Assembly: GCA_963826125.1 (NCBI GenBank)
Contig: CAWGVV010000002.1
Span: 356,613-420,612 of the forward strand
Source of the DNA: an uncultured delta proteobacterium
GTDB lineage: Bacteria > Desulfobacterota > Desulfarculia > JACQYL01 > CAWGVV01
Reading direction: 5' to 3'
Length of the DNA stretch: 64,000 nt
Shown here: one piece after another, positions 8,505-49,102 of the stretch
Layout of the letters: each line of letters begins with the position of its first letter
Numbering within the stretch: position 1 is the first letter of the stretch
Made by a program: the position numbers and the translations under genes
The notes under the pieces: generated by a model
Databases searched by the model: none
Seen by the model: the letters and a program-made list of their open reading frames with translations, nothing else
Told to the model about the DNA's origin: nothing

Positions 8505-9938
8505 CTACATTGCACTTCGGAATAAAGGTACCCAAGTAACAGTCCTATTTCTTCGATTCGGTCGACCAGAAACCTTTACAGGTCCTGCAGCCCAGAAAAG
8601 AGGGAGCGAAGCTTTCGGTACCGAGTGAGCAAATGCCAATGATAAACCGAGGCTTCGCATTCCTAACGCACACTCTCGCACCTTGGCATTTGGCCAATCG
8701 CCCCAACTTGCGGTATCTTTCTTCATTTTCAGGTAATTGTAGAAGAGTTGGTACCCGACTTTCTTACAGAACTGAACCGCCTTTTCCCGTTCTTTTTCAC
8801 ACGTACCCCATACTTTAGGGTTGGAGAATGCAGGTAACCTCATGTATTTTTCTGGACAAGCGATGACATCAGTTTCGCCTTCCCTACGCCAAAAATTCTT
8901 ACTAGCGAGAGATTTCTCCCCTTCGAAGGTGAGCACCCTTATTTCTTCGCCCGTATTAGAAACTTCTATGCAGTCTGAGAGACCTTGACTGTCCAAATAT
9001 TCCCGCAACACCGTGGCACCAAACTCAGAATGAACAGCAAATCTGAACTGGATGTTCTTGCCAAGAATGGAGGATGAATCACTAAGAGCGGGTATTTTTT
9101 GATTTCTTCCGGACGGGCACTTATTCAGAAGTGAGTTCAGAAGGCTTCGTGATTCAGTTGCAGAGAGGAGGCAGTCCTCAACGTAAAGAACATTTTGAGT
9201 ATTATTGTCTTCCAAACATGACCGAAGATCACTCAGAGTAGGCAACGGTTGCAACGGTTCGCTGGCTCTGAGTTCTGAGAGCTTCTTCTGAACCAAGTTC
9301 TGAATCACCCCACCGCTCTTGCCAAATTCATGAGAATTGAAGCAGATATACTGGAACCCGGAAATTTCATCTTTTTTGAGCGAAAGAGCTTCAGCAAGTC
9401 TTGGCTCTGTCCAAAAATCTAGCGACCTTAAAAGATTCTCACCAATCCACCTGTAATTGCCGAGATTTTCAAATTGCTGTATCCACTCCTTTAGGGAACC
9501 ATAAGAAATGTTACCATGGCTATATTTACTTAGAGTAGCCTCAATGCTACTAAGCCAATCTAATCTGAACTCTCCTAGAGCCTCCTTTATCCTTTCCTTC
9601 AAGAAAGCAAAATCGCTAGTACAATATTCCAATTGCCAGTTCTCGCCTCTACGCTCAGAATAAGGTATATCTTGCTGTCGGCACACAAAAATTCGAAAGT
9701 TAATGCCTTGATGTTTGGAAGTTAAGCCTTGCCTTATTGCTGTCTTGGAAAGGAGATTGTTATCACGAAGGAAATGGTTTGGAGTTTCAAGTAATATAAA
9801 GTGCTCGTCTTGATCCCATGCTGGCTTGGCATATTTATCTAGCAAATCTCGAAATTTTCGAGATTCCTTGAATGGTGTGATAATTAATATTCCCCCCCGA
9901 CGCATATTGGTATCTTCGTCAGCGACGCAGCAAAGCAT
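8505..9938 (-). CDS. Hypothetical protein (477-aa ORF), distal gene of the islet operon; no recognisable domain
   Basis: Long ORF in AT-rich DNA. Its start at 9938 overlaps the stop of the upstream ORF at 9919-9921 by 20 nt, suggesting translational coupling, although an alternative start MRRGG... lies at 9905. It has no Walker A motif and no obvious nuclease or NTase motifs. The C-terminal ~60 codons run into higher-GC DNA and may be read-through. Confidence 0.55.
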   Translation of the reverse strand: MLCCVADEDTNMRRGGILIITPFKESRKFRDLLDKYAKPAWDQDEHFILLETPNHFLRDNNLLSKTAIRQGLTSKHQGINFRIFVCRQQDIPYSERRGENWQLEYCTSDFAFLKERIKEALGEFRLDWLSSIEATLSKYSHGNISYGSLKEWIQQFENLGNYRWIGENLLRSLDFWTEPRLAEALSLKKDEISGFQYICFNSHEFGKSGGVIQNLVQKKLSELRASEPLQPLPTLSDLRSCLEDNNTQNVLYVEDCLLSATESRSLLNSLLNKCPSGRNQKIPALSDSSSILGKNIQFRFAVHSEFGATVLREYLDSQGLSDCIEVSNTGEEIRVLTFEGEKSLASKNFWRREGETDVIACPEKYMRLPAFSNPKVWGTCEKEREKAVQFCKKVGYQLFYNYLKMKKDTASWGDWPNAKVRECALGMRSLGLSLAFAHSVPKASLPLFWAAGPVKVSGRPNRRNRTVTWVPLFRSAM

Positions 9939-10797
9939 CCAACATAATCCCTAGAGGAAGCCATAGTTGGCGAAGTTCTGCTTCGCTCATGGTATCAACG
10001 CAGGCGCGGACGATTTCTCGGATGCCGGTAGGCATCGGCAAAAGGTGAGTACTGCCAGCAACTCTTTCGGGAGATAATGTTTCTTCCCTTAGTAGCTTCT
10101 TTCGCCTAAAGCCCCTCACATAAGAAGCAAACCCTTCAATCTCATCTTCATCCAATCCCAGAGATTTCAGCCTCTCTTCGAGGAACTTATTTAACATGAT
10201 CATACGCAGTGAAAGCAGGCGAGCATGGGCGGTTTTCCCTCCACGACTTCCAACTTCTTTAGAAAAAGGCAACCAGAAATTGTTTCCTTTCAGTTCAAAT
10301 TCTTCGGCGTTTTGAGGGAACTCGCTCTGTATAAAAAGAGAGGCAATTTTTCGATACTCATCTTCAGTAACCTTCTGTACCTCACAATATCCTTCTGGAA
10401 TTTCCTCCCCCTCTGATAGCACAACCAATTTTTTGTTATCCGGGGAAAAAAACAATCTCTCCCGCAACATCGGATTGCTAAACGCCCTCCAGGGGTTTTT
10501 TCTTTCGCTTTCTTTCTCTCCCGCCCCTTTAGAGACGCCAGCGGGAATGTCCCCAAGCCTTTTTCTATGTGTGTAGACGTTATCCATTCCGGATTTTCCC
10601 GTCGATATTACATTAGTGCATCTCGCTTCGATAAGGCCCCGTATTCCTCCAAACTTTTCTTTGACATCTAAATCCCTTATCTGGTCACTAAAAAATTCCC
10701 CAAGCTCAGTTCCTAAGACTTGGGGGGCAGGGTGCTTCAGGCAAAAATTTTCTATGTCTGTTACTATTCGCCCAATATTTTCATCATAACTGTCCAT
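9919..10797 (-). CDS. Hypothetical protein (~293 aa), proximal gene of the islet operon; no recognisable domain
   Basis: ORF in AT-rich DNA. The first in-frame ATG I can verify is at 10797 (MDSYDENIGRIV...), while the ORF track extends it to 10809. It is charged and helical (many E/K/R) and contains an R-x5-H stretch (RGGKTAH) whose significance is unknown. Confidence 0.55.
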   Translation of the reverse strand: MDSYDENIGRIVTDIENFCLKHPAPQVLGTELGEFFSDQIRDLDVKEKFGGIRGLIEARCTNVISTGKSGMDNVYTHRKRLGDIPAGVSKGAGEKESERKNPWRAFSNPMLRERLFFSPDNKKLVVLSEGEEIPEGYCEVQKVTEDEYRKIASLFIQSEFPQNAEEFELKGNNFWLPFSKEVGSRGGKTAHARLLSLRMIMLNKFLEERLKSLGLDEDEIEGFASYVRGFRRKKLLREETLSPERVAGSTHLLPMPTGIREIVRACVDTMSEAELRQLWLPLGIMLDALLRR

Positions 10798-10823
10798 CAC
10801 TTTCCCCACTTTTACAAAATAAA

Positions 10824-31170: not shown

Positions 31171-32124
31171 TCACCAGACCGACTTCCTGGTCGATCGGGT
31201 GAGAGAGATGAATGCTTCCTCCAGCGTCGGCACCACTTCGGTGAATTCCCGGATCAACCAGCCGTTGTCGCGAATCGCGGCCGATATGCGGGAGAGGACG
31301 TCCTTGTTTTCGAAACAGGTGATTTCGAAGCGCACGCAGCCGTCCCCGCCCTGAGCGTAGGAGCGTTCCACCGCGTCCACCCCGTCGATCGAACGGAGCC
31401 CCTTTTCCACCTGATCCGCATCGCCCTTCACCACGATTACGTAGCGGGTGTCTCCGTAGGCGGTGGCGGCCATTTCGGCCAGGGTTCCGTCGAAGATGAT
31501 TTTCCCCTCGTTGATGACCACGGTACGGTCGCTGAGAGCGGATATCTCCTGCAGGATATGTGTGCTGATGACGATGGTCTTGTCCCGGGCCAGACTCACG
31601 ATCAAGTCCCGGATGCCGATGATCTGCAGCGGATCGAGGCCCGAAGTGGGTTCGTCCAGAATAAGGATTTCCGGGTCGTGTATCAGGGCCTGGGCAATGC
31701 CCACTCTCTGGCGGTATCCCTTTGAAAGTTCATGAATCTGCTTGCGCAGCATTTTCCTCAGTCCGCACGCCTCGACCACGAAATCCATCCGTCTTCGGGC
31801 AATGTCACGGTGAAGCTGCCGCCCGGAGGCCACGAAGCGAAGATAATCGATTACTTCCATGTCCGTATAGAGGGGGACCGCCTCAGGCAGATATCCCAGA
31901 CGCCGGCGCACTTCGAGAGGCTGTTCCCTCACATCGAACCCGCCCACTACGGCGGTGCCCGAGGTGGGCGCCATCTGCGTGGTGAGGATGTTCATGATGG
32001 TGGATTTGCCGGCGCCGTTGGGCCCCAGAAGGCCCAGAATGGTACCGCTGCCGACTTCGAAGGACGCCCGGTCCACGGCCAGCGTGGGGCCGTAGAGCAT
32101 GGTAAGTTCCTTTACCTGAATCAT
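31171..32124 (-). CDS. ABC transporter ATP-binding protein (GldA-like, ABC-2 type)
   Basis: Walker A (GPNGAGKST), ABC signature (LSKGYRQR), Walker B (ILILDEP) and an H-loop are all present. I placed the start at MIQVKELTMLYG. Confidence 0.85.
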   Translation of the reverse strand: MIQVKELTMLYGPTLAVDRASFEVGSGTILGLLGPNGAGKSTIMNILTTQMAPTSGTAVVGGFDVREQPLEVRRRLGYLPEAVPLYTDMEVIDYLRFVASGRQLHRDIARRRMDFVVEACGLRKMLRKQIHELSKGYRQRVGIAQALIHDPEILILDEPTSGLDPLQIIGIRDLIVSLARDKTIVISTHILQEISALSDRTVVINEGKIIFDGTLAEMAATAYGDTRYVIVVKGDADQVEKGLRSIDGVDAVERSYAQGGDGCVRFEITCFENKDVLSRISAAIRDNGWLIREFTEVVPTLEEAFISLTRSTRKSVW

Positions 32125-32261
32125 AACCCCCCCAAAGGGTCGTACCGGTTCCCCCTGCCGCGGTCGCAACGTGTCGACGGCGGCCGTCCGGGCGGAAATG
32201 GCCGAGTTTTCCTAATCCTTTGCAACCGTTAGGCGTATTAAAAGAAATGGCGGCCGATGTC

Positions 32262-33400
32262 AACCAGTTCCAACATGAACTATCTGCTGGAAATTTAGGA
32301 TTATAGAGTATACTATTCTTAAAATTTGCTATACGTAAATAGCCACCCGTAACAGGATAGTTAAAATGAACGACGAAATAAATAATTTCCTATCTCAGTT
32401 TCGGATGTTTTTGATAAAAGCTAATGACAGTGACCTATATGTCTATGGTGGCTACAACCCACTTGGATTACTAATGGTTAAAGAAAATCACATCGAAAGT
32501 AGAACTGTCTTCAAGCAATCCGAGTCAATATTGCGAATAGGTTGGTCAAAAATAAGCAAATTCGCTCAAAATAAAATTAAGTTTCGAGGTTGTACTATAA
32601 ATAAATATGTTTTTATTGGAAAAATATTTCGCGAAAATGCAATATTGCATGTTAAACTGACCAACAACATTACTCTTGTAGAACTAGACATTAAAAGTAA
32701 GCGTGTTTCTGTCATAGGATCAGGCAACATGAATGAGCGGTTGTTAGATTTTCTTTTAAAATTCTCCTATAATATGAGATTCACTTGCTCTTATGATTTT
32801 GAAGGAATTTTAAAACAACAAACATCAAGTGGAGGACATCAAAAGATAGATACAGTTAGAAGAAAAGTTGATCCTACGGTATTTATCTCATATTCAATAG
32901 ATTCTGAAGAACATCAAAAATGGGTGGTTAAGCTAGCTGCAGATCTTATTAGGCGAGGTGTAAGGGTGACTATCGACGAATGGGATCTCCGCTATTATAA
33001 CAACAACTTACACTACTTTATGGAGAGAGGAATCGCAAATTCAGACTTTGTCTTGATGGTTTGTACACCGGAATATGCTAAAAAGGCCGATAATAGAACA
33101 GGTGGTGTTGGTATCGAGTGTTCGATTATAACGTCGGAAATTTATAATCCAGAAAAATCAGGTAAATACTTGCCCATAGTTAAGGGGTATTCTTCTGGTA
33201 TCAACGAGTGCTTGCCTTTATTTTTAAAAACAAAAAAAGTGTTAGATTTCAATAACTACAGTAAATATGACAATAACATAGACGCCCTCTTGAGGGAAAT
33301 ATTAGACATTCCTAAATATGAGAGGCCCACATTGGGTAGATTGGTGCCACCTAGGTCGATTCGAGTTTAAACCGAAACAGCAAGCTAACTCCAGAGAATT
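32262..33400. other. AT-rich single-gene islet (putative horizontal insertion)
   Basis: Composition is markedly AT-rich between the ABC ATPase start and the SDR stop. It contains only the TIR-domain ORF. I did not recognise an integrase, a tRNA or clear direct repeats. Confidence 0.55.
32366..33370 (+). CDS. TIR-domain protein: unknown ~165-aa N-terminal domain plus C-terminal TIR domain
   Basis: The C-terminal half (PTVFISYSIDSEEHQKWVVKLAADLIRRGVRVTIDEWDLRYYNNNLHYFMERGIANSDFVLMVCTPEYAKKADNRTGGVGIECSIITSEIY) has the TIR hallmarks. These are a betaA strand F-I-S-Y-S, a W-containing alphaA, and a conserved Glu in GxGIECS. An AGGATAG ribosome-binding site precedes the ATG. Confidence 0.75.
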   Translation: MNDEINNFLSQFRMFLIKANDSDLYVYGGYNPLGLLMVKENHIESRTVFKQSESILRIGWSKISKFAQNKIKFRGCTINKYVFIGKIFRENAILHVKLTNNITLVELDIKSKRVSVIGSGNMNERLLDFLLKFSYNMRFTCSYDFEGILKQQTSSGGHQKIDTVRRKVDPTVFISYSIDSEEHQKWVVKLAADLIRRGVRVTIDEWDLRYYNNNLHYFMERGIANSDFVLMVCTPEYAKKADNRTGGVGIECSIITSEIYNPEKSGKYLPIVKGYSSGINECLPLFLKTKKVLDFNNYSKYDNNIDALLREILDIPKYERPTLGRLVPPRSIRV

Positions 33401-33403
33401 GAT

Positions 33404-34147
33404 TCACATCCCCCAACCACCGCTCACTTCCACGGCCGCGCCCGTCATGAAGGACGCCTCGTCCGAAGCCAGGAAGGCGATGACGTTGGCGATTTCCGCC
33501 GGGGAGGCCGACCTGCCGAGCGGCGTGTCGGCGATGATGGCCCGCTTGTACTCCTCTTTCATGACGTTCAGGATGGTCGGGGTGTCGGTGAGGCCGGGCA
33601 GCACGACGTTCACGCGTACGCCGTGAGGCCCGAGTTCGCGGGCCATGCTCTTGGTGAGGCCGACGAGCCCCGCCTTGGCCGTGCAATAGGCAAGTTCGCC
33701 CTTGGCTCCCGCCTTGCCGTAGATGGAAGAGACGTTGACGATGCTGCCGGCCTTCCGCTCCTTCATCATACCGGCAGCGAGCCGCGACAGGTTGAGGCAC
33801 CCTTTGAGATGCACGTTCATGACCTGGTCCCACTCGTCGTTCGTGATTCTGGACAGGGTGCCCGGCCGGTCGAACCCCGCGTTGTTCACCAGAACGTCGA
33901 CATGGGGAAAGGTCGCCAGGACGCGGGCAAAGCCTTCCTCCACCGACCCTTGGTCGGCCACGTCGGCGGTGACCGCAAGAGACTTTCGTCCCAGGCTCGC
34001 CACCGCCTCGGCGGTCAGCACCGCCGTTTCCCCGTTCCGGTCCAGCACCGCCACGTCAGCTCCCTCTTGCGCGAACTTGACGGCCGCGGCCCGACCGATC
34101 CCCTGCCCCGCTCCGGTGATGAGAGCGACCTTGCCCTCCAGCCTCAC
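33404..34147 (-). CDS. SDR-family oxidoreductase (3-oxoacyl-ACP reductase-like)
   Basis: It has the TGAGQGIG Rossmann motif, NNAG, and a YxxxK catalytic pair (YCTAK). A probable GTG start (VRLEGKVALITG) was chosen over the long GC-rich N-terminal extension of the track ORF. Confidence 0.8.
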   Translation of the reverse strand: MRLEGKVALITGAGQGIGRAAAVKFAQEGADVAVLDRNGETAVLTAEAVASLGRKSLAVTADVADQGSVEEGFARVLATFPHVDVLVNNAGFDRPGTLSRITNDEWDQVMNVHLKGCLNLSRLAAGMMKERKAGSIVNVSSIYGKAGAKGELAYCTAKAGLVGLTKSMARELGPHGVRVNVVLPGLTDTPTILNVMKEEYKRAIIADTPLGRSASPAEIANVIAFLASDEASFMTGAAVEVSGGWGM

Positions 34148-48055: not shown

Positions 48056-49102
48056 TCATGTTTTTTGCCATAAAGCATCACGCCCTGCCTTAACGCATAC
48101 GATTTGGCCGGCCTGGCGGAGGTCCCGAAGGGCACGATTAATCGTAGGACGGCTTATGCCCGGGCAGGCCCGTTCGATGTCTGCTACATGAAAGTTCACC
48201 GGCAAGCGTTCAATGACATCGGTGATCATCTCCCTTTTGGCCCCACGACGCTGCGTCAGGTCCCCCGTTCGTTGTTCGAATTCCCGATATGCCCCAAGGA
48301 GCATTACCCCAAGAAAATATTCCCACCAAGGAACCAGCGAGTGGCGTCCCTCATGCCATCCCTGTGAGGATTTGTAGAGGGCATCGTAATACCCTTCCCG
48401 TTGGGTTTCGATGAGGTGTTCCAGGCTGATATATCGCCCAACCTCGTAACCGGCTTGGTAAATCAGGAGTAATGACAATAAGCGGGCCACGCGACCGTTG
48501 CCATCGGTAAAAGGGTGGATGCAGAGAAAGTCCAGCACGTAGGCTGGAATGAGCAGCAATGCATCTATCTCTTCCTTCTCCCAGCATTCTTTAAAAGAGG
48601 AATGCAATCTTTCCATTGCATCGGGCGTTTGATGGGCCGGTACCGGCCTGAAGCGAATAAATCGAGTTCCATCGGTACGCGTTTCCGTGATCGCGTTATC
48701 CGTCATTTTCCACCGGCCGCCTTGTTGAGAAGCGAATTGATAGATGTCACGATGTAGTTGCAGGACCACTCCCGTAGTCATCGGTATATTGTTGGAATTG
48801 GCGTGAATGGTCGCGATCGCTTCACGGTAGCCGGCTATCTCCTGCTCCGAACGATTCCGAGGGGTGGTCTTGTGCTCGACAAGCTTCCTGATACGCTCGG
48901 GAGGAGCCTCAATTCCCTCGATCCGATTGGACGATTCGGTGCTTTGAATGACTGCCACCTGACGCAGGGTTTCCAGAACCTGCGGGGCTTGCTGCTTAAA
49001 AAGCCCCTCCTTCCCCTTGTATTCGCCCAGCAATCGAATTGTTCGCAGGAGAGAATGTGGGATGATTTGCCTTTCCAAAAACTCATGTTCAAATGACTGC
49101 AT
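48056..49102 (-). CDS. Fic-family protein, class II (N-terminal inhibitory helix) with C-terminal wHTH-like domain
   Basis: The Fic motif HPFTDGNGRVARLL is present, along with an N-terminal (S/T)xxxE(G/N) inhibitory motif in STESSNRIEGIE. The C-terminal ~80 aa looks like a DNA-binding winged helix. Confidence 0.85.
   Translation of the reverse strand: MQSFEHEFLERQIIPHSLLRTIRLLGEYKGKEGLFKQQAPQVLETLRQVAVIQSTESSNRIEGIEAPPERIRKLVEHKTTPRNRSEQEIAGYREAIATIHANSNNIPMTTGVVLQLHRDIYQFASQQGGRWKMTDNAITETRTDGTRFIRFRPVPAHQTPDAMERLHSSFKECWEKEEIDALLLIPAYVLDFLCIHPFTDGNGRVARLLSLLLIYQAGYEVGRYISLEHLIETQREGYYDALYKSSQGWHEGRHSLVPWWEYFLGVMLLGAYREFEQRTGDLTQRRGAKREMITDVIERLPVNFHVADIERACPGISRPTINRALRDLRQAGQIVCVKAGRDALWQKT

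Follow-up and report, generated by a model that had tools for sequence, protein, structure and literature searches.

The DNA analysed here is a 64-kb stretch (64,000 nucleotides, nt; hereafter the window) of contig CAWGVV010000002.1, positions 356,613 to 420,612, from an uncultured delta proteobacterium (assembly GCA_963826125.1). Close to its middle, an AT-rich islet contains a single gene, whose product of 334 amino acids (aa) joins a previously unannotated N-terminal domain (N-domain) to a C-terminal SEFIR domain. Two things are new: the domain order, which is the reverse of that of the published SEFIR defence proteins, and the rare N-terminal module itself, which is common to fusions with PIN, HEPN-type, TIR and membrane effectors. 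The protein is probably a standalone anti-phage system of the abortive-infection type. Its main features are listed below, in window coordinates.

32207..33410, no strand: AT-rich islet with one gene, GC content (GC) ~0.35, delimited by likelihood change-points
32366..33370 (stop codon included), plus strand: open reading frame (ORF) of 334 aa with two domains, the novel N-domain and the C-terminal SEFIR domain
32366..32866, plus strand: N-domain, aa 1-167, previously unannotated family with an alpha/beta core and family-conserved positions
32873..33349, plus strand: SEFIR domain, aa 170-328, predicted NAD+ glycohydrolase effector, from PADLOC, Pfam and PDB matches
32975..32977, plus strand: codon GAC of D204 (motif IDEWDL), invariant in 90/90 SEFIR domains
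33116..33118, plus strand: codon GAG of E251 (motif GGVGIE), candidate catalytic glutamate, invariant in 90/90 SEFIR domains

The protein begins with MNDEINNFLSQFRMFLIKANDSDLYVYGGYNPLG, as quoted in the initial annotation, which was made from the DNA letters before any database search. That annotation placed the C-terminal half in the TIR superfamily, pointing to the motifs FISYS (aa 173-177) and GVGIECS (aa 247-253), and profile searches agreed. Pfam TIR_2 (5.3e-17, 62.9 bits, cut-off 28, aa 172-309) and Pfam SEFIR (1.9e-14, 54.6 bits, cut-off 23) both exceeded their gathering scores, which places the domain in the STIR clan (TIR superfamily). The PADLOC model bSEFIR matched with an E-value of 6.4e-64 (215 bits), aa 163-328 corresponding, in one stretch, to model positions 37-195 of 412. 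With the family profile, the crystal structures of Bacillus cereus SEFIR (5Y8E/5Y8F) were matched at 1e-37 (aa 172-323), about half of the residues aligned to 5Y8E being identical; the Act1 SEFIR and bacterial TIR NADases reached only 0.03-0.1. TIR_2 thus outscored SEFIR in hmmscan, whereas the structures favoured SEFIR (1e-37 vs 0.05-0.1 for TIR); the published membership rule used HHsearch. The domain is a prokaryotic SEFIR, a more precise assignment than a generic or ThsB-type TIR.

Residue conservation was assessed in 90 SEFIR domains: that of the window protein, that of BcSEFIR and those encoded at 88 loci taken from scans of genomes and viral sequences, canonical N-terminal-SEFIR genes included. 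Seven positions were invariant in all 90 domains, and the window protein has kept every one of them (F173, S175, Y176, S177, D204, G247 and E251). The glutamate of GVGIECS, already proposed as a candidate NADase residue, is E251. TIR NADases use a catalytic glutamate; by analogy, E251 is a candidate for the same role, and its invariance fits. No paper found by the literature search names a catalytic residue for SEFIR, or describes this architecture. In B. cereus SEFIR, the residue aligned with D204 is D37 (motif ILDRW). Judging by position, the counterpart of D204 in the SEFIR protein of Bacillus sp. NIO-1130 is probably D40, and the mutation D40A abolished defence there (Millman et al. 2022).

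Bacterial SEFIR was first proposed as a protein-interaction domain, and the SEFIR domains of animals are adaptors. A SEFIR-domain protein was then found to guard B. subtilis against phage phi29, members of this system being defined by a SEFIR match that is N-terminal and stronger than the TIR match in HHsearch (Millman et al. 2022). Later work described SEFIR as a single-protein system in which the N-terminal SEFIR domain depletes NAD+, yielding ADP-ribose (ADPR) plus nicotinamide, and reported that the NAD+-reconstitution pathway NARP1 of phages overcomes it. The window protein resembles this system (SEFIR/bSEFIR, PADLOC PDLC03957) in its enzymatic domain, in the invariant residues D204 and E251, and in being a single gene without a conserved partner. 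By analogy, the same conversion of NAD+ to ADPR and nicotinamide would be expected. It differs in the place of its SEFIR domain, which is C-terminal (aa 170-328 of 334) and would have to be N-terminal under the canonical definition. The bSEFIR C-terminal region of ~215 residues (model positions 196-412) is absent, and an unrelated N-terminal domain stands in its place. In proteins encoded at the 93 closest SEFIR loci, SEFIR was N-terminal in 44, central in 11 and alone in 5. A C-terminal SEFIR is a frequent natural layout, since it occurs in 27 of these 93. The initial annotation had considered a new module for abortive infection made of a single protein. Its domain order and N-domain are indeed new, but novelty was overstated, because single-gene, NAD+-depleting SEFIR defence had already been published.

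The N-domain, which the initial annotation could not recognise, had no match in PADLOC (E <= 10), PHROGs, NCBIfam or the PDB sequences. Against Pfam, the family gave a faint, below-threshold Mrr_cat signal in two of nine members alone (E = 0.022). A word-indexed search of 5.8 billion proteins returned 13 relatives of the whole protein, nine of them full length (325-340 aa, 40-49% identical). When the N-domain profile was run exhaustively as a hidden Markov model (HMM) against 1.84 billion cluster representatives, 31 proteins matched, 26 of them at E <= 1e-10. The N-domain is thus very rare, and it was N-terminal in all 31 representatives. Its HMM matched none of 86 other SEFIR-gene products, and it was absent from all nine SEFIR loci on viral contigs, which were SEFIR-only; the alignment in its broad form was too divergent for scans of loci. 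The two-domain protein as a circular permutation of canonical bSEFIR, in which the N-domain would be homologous to the C-terminal region of bSEFIR, was ruled out by the missing PADLOC match of the N-domain and by its absence from the 86 SEFIR-gene products.

In most of the 31 representatives, the C-terminal partner of the N-domain was SEFIR. The other partners were a ThsB-like TIR (P0032), PIN/PIN_3 (P0031 and P0035; P0037 resembles these two in sequence, without a Pfam PIN match) and a Hypoth_Ymh/HEPN-type domain with an RNPRSH (Rx4H) motif, which also matched PD-Lambda-3_B and Aga_HEPN (P0030). In three further proteins (P0020, P0021 and P0023), the N-domain was followed by a zinc-ribbon-like CxxC...CxxC and then one hydrophobic helix, both read from the sequence. 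P0020 has a long, Lys-rich and beta-rich tail, and none of the three proteins matched Pfam or PADLOC; these proteins may be membrane-acting effectors. SEFIR, TIR, PIN, HEPN-type and transmembrane (TM) partners are standard effector classes of defence systems. One domain common to such swappable effectors hints at a module for sensing or regulation whose effectors are interchangeable.

Two proteins had unusual layouts. In P0014 (265 aa), the N-domain and the first ~45 SEFIR residues precede the C-terminal half of a receiver domain of the response-regulator type; this protein is probably either a chimera created by assembly or a remnant left by rearrangement. P0011 (334 aa, from a JGI metagenome) is a tandem SEFIR-SEFIR protein that matched PADLOC bSEFIR at 1e-116 in two stretches. 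Its C-terminal SEFIR is 57% identical to that of the window, and a second SEFIR/TIR-like domain replaces the N-domain.

AlphaFold2 modelled the N-domain from a nine-sequence alignment with a mean predicted local distance difference test score (pLDDT) of 81.6 and a predicted template modelling score (pTM) of 0.81. The predicted core is alpha-beta-beta-beta-alpha-beta (helix 2-18, strands 24-27, 35-40 and 45-51, helix 60-68, strand 80-85). After it, the model has a helix (90-96), two strands (102-108 and 113-117), a helix (124-136) and a less confident beta-meander. The structural neighbours of this model included VC1899 (score 7.9) and Can2 (7.6), then BsmI, NucS, Cap4 and LlaBIII, followed by FokI, MspJI, AspBHI and HamA; YqgP-NTD (8.0) and Rossmann-like dehydrogenases (6-6.7) were interspersed among the nucleases. 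Foldseek against PDB and BFVD gave no significant E-value; its highest-probability hits, with E-values likewise not significant, were NucS/EndoMS (0.82-0.92), Cap4, Shedu, a 'restriction endonuclease', RPB5 and Mrr-like proteins.

Conserved positions in 26 N-domain members were Y27, G34, L36-L37, K39, K/R50-P-W, P-x-G59, F73-K/R74, D/N79, F88-R-x-N91-A92, L104, G118-S-x-N121 and D144. The D...(D/E)xK motif of PD-(D/E)XK nucleases was not found: no acidic residue was conserved in strands 2 or 3 of the 26 members, and the (D/E) position of strand 3 is hydrophobic in the family. We consider it reasonably probable that the N-domain fold is restriction-endonuclease-like but degenerate and non-catalytic. 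The basic residues conserved in it hint that it may bind a phosphate-containing ligand. It differs from the PD-(D/E)XK domains of Cap4, Can2/Card1, Shedu, HamA and Mrr in having no sequence similarity to them and no conserved catalytic triad; those proteins use their nuclease domain as effector, whereas the N-domain takes the position of a sensor or regulator.

Among 185,579 GTDB species genomes, the full two-domain architecture was present in only three, spanning Gammaproteobacteria and two Bacteroidota orders: a Sedimenticola metagenome-assembled genome (MAG), a Bacteroidales MAG and Cyclobacterium qasimii. The Bacteroidales (L007) and C. qasimii (L010) copies are 83% identical at the DNA level, with differences mostly at third codon positions. 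In this one testable pair, both domains are under purifying selection, with nonsynonymous to synonymous rate ratios (dN/dS, Nei-Gojobori) of 0.061 for the N-domain, 0.029 for SEFIR and 0.04 overall, values that are approximate because dS was saturated (1.1-2.0). In C. qasimii M12-11B, the only cultured isolate with a two-domain copy, a 1-nt deletion next to an A-run in the SEFIR domain (L010 10590-10625) splits the gene. Either this copy was inactivated recently, or the homopolymer gave rise to a sequencing error; in the window, the gene is intact.

Every homologue examined was AT-richer than its contig, with GC of 0.33/0.45, 0.34/0.42, 0.36/0.43, 0.275/0.31 and 0.28/0.37 (gene/contig). A synteny survey, proposed with the initial annotation, revealed no conserved neighbour gene across seven homologue contexts, window copy included. 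Around L004 lay HigB, HTH-TIR (helix-turn-helix-TIR) and Schlafen/AlbA genes, around L003 Prok-E2/JAB and DUF932, around L001 a short TIR, an amidase, PIN and IS110, around L010 a TIR-like ORF and a membrane ORF, and around L007 housekeeping-type genes. The contigs of P0030, P0032, P0020 and P0019 (1-3 kb) had no informative neighbours. The PIN fusion P0031 was found in an integrase-bearing element (L095; GCA_044345325.1, 176-10809), where a second PIN gene directly follows it. Genes of the MJECL33 and MTBMA_p00010 types, typical for extrachromosomal elements of archaea, are part of this element, so that the N-domain family may span both bacteria and archaea.

Small separate TIR genes were observed 0.2-2.6 kb from three homologues (L001 1993-2268, L004 551-1291 and L010 8514-8855). 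The first encodes a 91-aa TIR_2 protein and the second an HTH+TIR protein, and the third, a 113-aa ORF, matched SNC1 and bacterial TIR structures at 1e-4 to 1e-3. They vary in size, position and orientation, and none was seen in the window, in L003 or in the partly annotated L007. These genes probably reflect defence-island clustering, and they may have a loose functional link to the homologues. A missed conserved partner gene was ruled out for the available contexts, the nearby TIR genes being positionally variable.

The neighbouring genes and the ribosome-binding site of the window copy are as follows.

31171..32124, minus strand: ABC-transporter ATPase, from the Pfam annotation of the identical public contig
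32354..32357, plus strand: Shine-Dalgarno-like AGGA, 8 nt 5' of the ATG, read from the sequence
33404.., minus strand: short-chain dehydrogenase (SDR), from the Pfam annotation of the identical public contig

The AT-rich islet, its 334-aa ORF and its ABC ATPase and SDR flanks were all as initially annotated; the span given there (32262-33400) lies within the islet, the left change-point being ~55 bp further left. In 400-nt windows, GC was 0.32-0.38 over 32200-33400 and 0.55-0.65 on both flanks. In 1100-nt windows, 32219-33318 was the GC minimum of the 64 kb (0.343), compared with a mean of 0.570 +/- 0.047 in the remaining ones (z = -4.9); the second-lowest value was 0.42, near 8790. This contrast is far beyond chance. 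GC at third codon positions (GC3) was 0.33 in the SEFIR gene, compared with 0.77 in the ABC ATPase and 0.85 in the SDR gene. Likelihood change-points at ~32207 and ~33410 delimit an islet of ~1.2 kb. On the right, it ends at the stop codon of the convergent SDR gene (33404-33406), and its left border is inside the 241-bp spacer before the start of the divergent ABC ATPase (32124). An identical protein is encoded on a 2.67-Mb public contig.

Judged by composition, the SEFIR gene is horizontally acquired: GC is 0.35 in the islet and 0.57 around it, GC3 differs in the same direction, and the homologues are AT-rich as well, in agreement with the single-gene transfer initially proposed. No tRNA gene was found in the 64-kb window, and no Rfam family reached the gathering threshold there. 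The annotated stretches next to the islet (~6 kb upstream and ~2 kb downstream) contained no integrase, and no credible direct repeats flanking it were found. The islet is a clear case of a minimal 1.2-kb single-gene acquisition without visible mobility machinery. The islet lies between the arms of an inverted repeat of 23 nt with 83% complementarity (32181-32203 / 33488-33510). As an insertion signature it was judged a chance match, both arms lying in GC-rich host sequence and the right one inside the SDR gene.

For the host side, the best orthologue of the neighbouring ATPase was only 67% identical, indicating a poorly sampled lineage; among named organisms, the top matches were in a Deltaproteobacteria MAG (57%) and in Desulfoferrobacter suflitae (56%). 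A Desulfobacterota-like host is probable, if weakly placed. When the neighbouring ABC permease was used to scan GTDB species genomes, nothing was found. Relatives retain the synteny ATPase-permease-DUF4340-ClC-CoA-transferase. Upstream of the ATPase, they have Era and radical-SAM genes and no SEFIR gene, so the islet is at a synteny breakpoint and not at a clean empty site. A clean empty-site comparison failed, the nearest ATPase orthologues being 67% identical and having different genes on the islet side.

We favour, with fair confidence, the interpretation of the gene as encoding a standalone, horizontally acquired anti-phage SEFIR protein of the abortive-infection type, with the N-domain as its sensing or regulatory module. 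In this mechanism, the N-domain would hold the SEFIR effector off until it binds an infection cue. The cue might be a nucleic-acid or nucleotide-like ligand, as the fold and the conserved basic residues hint, or a phage protein. Activation would probably proceed, as with other SEFIR/TIR enzymes, by self-association or oligomerisation via a conserved SEFIR-SEFIR interface that includes D204. The activated domain would then hydrolyse NAD+ to ADP-ribose and nicotinamide at the E251 site, and NAD+ depletion would starve both the infected cell and the phage, aborting the infection.

Several points weigh against this interpretation. The sensing role of the N-domain is read from domain architecture. 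The canonical SEFIR defence genes have an N-terminal SEFIR, and activity of a C-terminal one is an extrapolation from them. The GGVG-E loop (aa 245-263) was modelled with a pLDDT below 50 in the full-length prediction. The window and Bacteroidales copies are located among housekeeping genes and not in a defence island, and the saturation of dS noted above limits the measure of selection.

Similar logic is found in DSR1/DSR2, where an N-terminal SIR2 and a C-terminal sensor put an NADase effector and a sensing domain into one chain; abortive infection by NAD+ depletion, known for these, would by analogy be expected of the window protein. The differences are a SIR2 effector instead of SEFIR, a reversed order, an unrelated sensor, and the much smaller size of the window protein (334 aa). 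More tentatively, at slightly less than even chances in our estimate, the N-domain may define a hitherto unrecognised and very rare family of immune proteins made of a single polypeptide. In such a family, a degenerate nuclease-fold sensor would be combined with interchangeable killing modules (SEFIR/TIR NADase, PIN/HEPN RNase or a membrane tail). Horizontal transfer would have distributed the family over bacterial phyla and mobile elements of archaeal type, and its sensor would respond to a phage nucleic-acid or nucleotide cue through a basic pocket (K39, K/R50, K/R74, R89 and N91).

Three other explanations were considered, all less likely than the NAD+-depleting SEFIR protein described above. 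In the first, which we regard as unlikely, SEFIR is not an NAD+ depleter but a signal generator, making a ThsB-like second messenger for an unlinked effector, or an assembly adaptor in the manner of IL-17R/Act1. The adaptor role of animal SEFIRs and the first proposal for the bacterial domain agree with it, TIR-superfamily enzymes can make signalling nucleotides, and separate small TIR-like genes lie near the homologues of L001, L004 and L010. However, these genes lack any consistent size, position or orientation and are missing from the window, L003 and the annotated part of L007, and bacterial SEFIR has been reported to deplete NAD+ itself. The sister proteins, moreover, join the N-domain to self-sufficient toxic effectors (PIN, HEPN-type and TM); this speaks for a killing module at the C-terminal position.

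A signalling role would also recall Thoeris, whose ThsB (a TIR protein paired with ThsA) shares with the window protein a TIR superfamily fold, the conserved glutamate and, by prediction for the latter, NAD+ as substrate. Thoeris is, however, a two-gene system with ThsB as sensor and signal generator, whereas the window protein is a two-domain product of a single gene. The 'ThsB-like orphan' of the initial annotation was not borne out. The protein matched bSEFIR and 5Y8E as given above, and no PADLOC ThsB model; among the NCBIfam Thoeris models, only type III ThcB4 appeared (E = 0.12, 11 bits vs a cut-off of 220). The same annotation had correctly seen no ThsA-like SIR2/SLOG or Macro partner next to the gene: none was present among the 35 window proteins at E <= 1e-5, and none is conserved beside the homologues. 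An orphan ThsB of a Thoeris system was ruled out by the absent ThsB profile match together with the lack of ThsA in the window.

Quite unlikely, too, is a selfish or decaying passenger, that is, a remnant of a mobile island, a functionless toxin or a gene being lost. Without integrase, repeats or a tRNA target, and at a synteny breakpoint, the islet may be such a remnant; the frameshift of the C. qasimii copy and the lack of a convincing promoter point the same way. A putative promoter should lie within the AT-rich 32207-32353, but the sole site of a sigma-70 scan was weak (9/12 at 32340-32367) and no better than those of shuffles, so that a promoter was not established, and a promoter and terminator scan was not above shuffles. 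Against decay, the window ORF is intact and full length, with the invariant SEFIR residues and the family-conserved N-domain residues kept, and purifying selection on both domains was strong in the testable pair. The C. qasimii frameshift abuts a homopolymer and is possibly a sequencing error. Finally, the idea that the N-domain is an active PD-(D/E)XK nuclease and the real effector, with the C-terminal domains as sensors or assembly modules, draws on its top structural neighbours, which are nucleases and in several cases defence effectors (Cap4, Can2, Shedu, HamA and Mrr-like), and on the faint Mrr_cat signal, but it is very improbable and was rejected on the absent catalytic residues, the C-terminal partners all being recognised effector types and not sensors, and no PDB nuclease matching in sequence.

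SEFIR ties bacterial anti-phage immunity to the domain of animal IL-17 receptor/Act1 signalling, and the N-terminal-SEFIR architecture is the sole one tested. The protein described here places an NADase-type SEFIR also at the C-terminus, behind a compact new domain that fronts at least five kinds of effector. If the N-domain is a sensor, it would offer a small, tractable system for studying immune recognition and its relay to unrelated effectors, and, at ~140-165 residues, would be among the smallest self-contained phage sensors. Profile-based annotators would probably label such genes 'SEFIR' (here, 215 bits to bSEFIR), even though they break the published definition.

Two further loci in the window deserve mention. 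The second lowest-GC stretch, 8505-10809 on the minus strand (0.42-0.45 vs 0.57), encodes a 477-aa protein with a Pfam PRTase-CE match (7e-14) and a weak PADLOC PRTase_III-A match, together with an overlapping upstream ORF of 296 aa without a Pfam match; it may be another horizontally acquired conflict or defence gene pair. About 15 kb from the SEFIR gene, 48056-49102 on the minus strand encodes a 348-aa Fic-domain protein (Pfam Fic, 2.6e-15). PADLOC SoFic matched one of the 35 window proteins at 5.9e-39, presumably this one, the only Fic protein identified, which makes the gene a candidate single-gene SoFic defence system.

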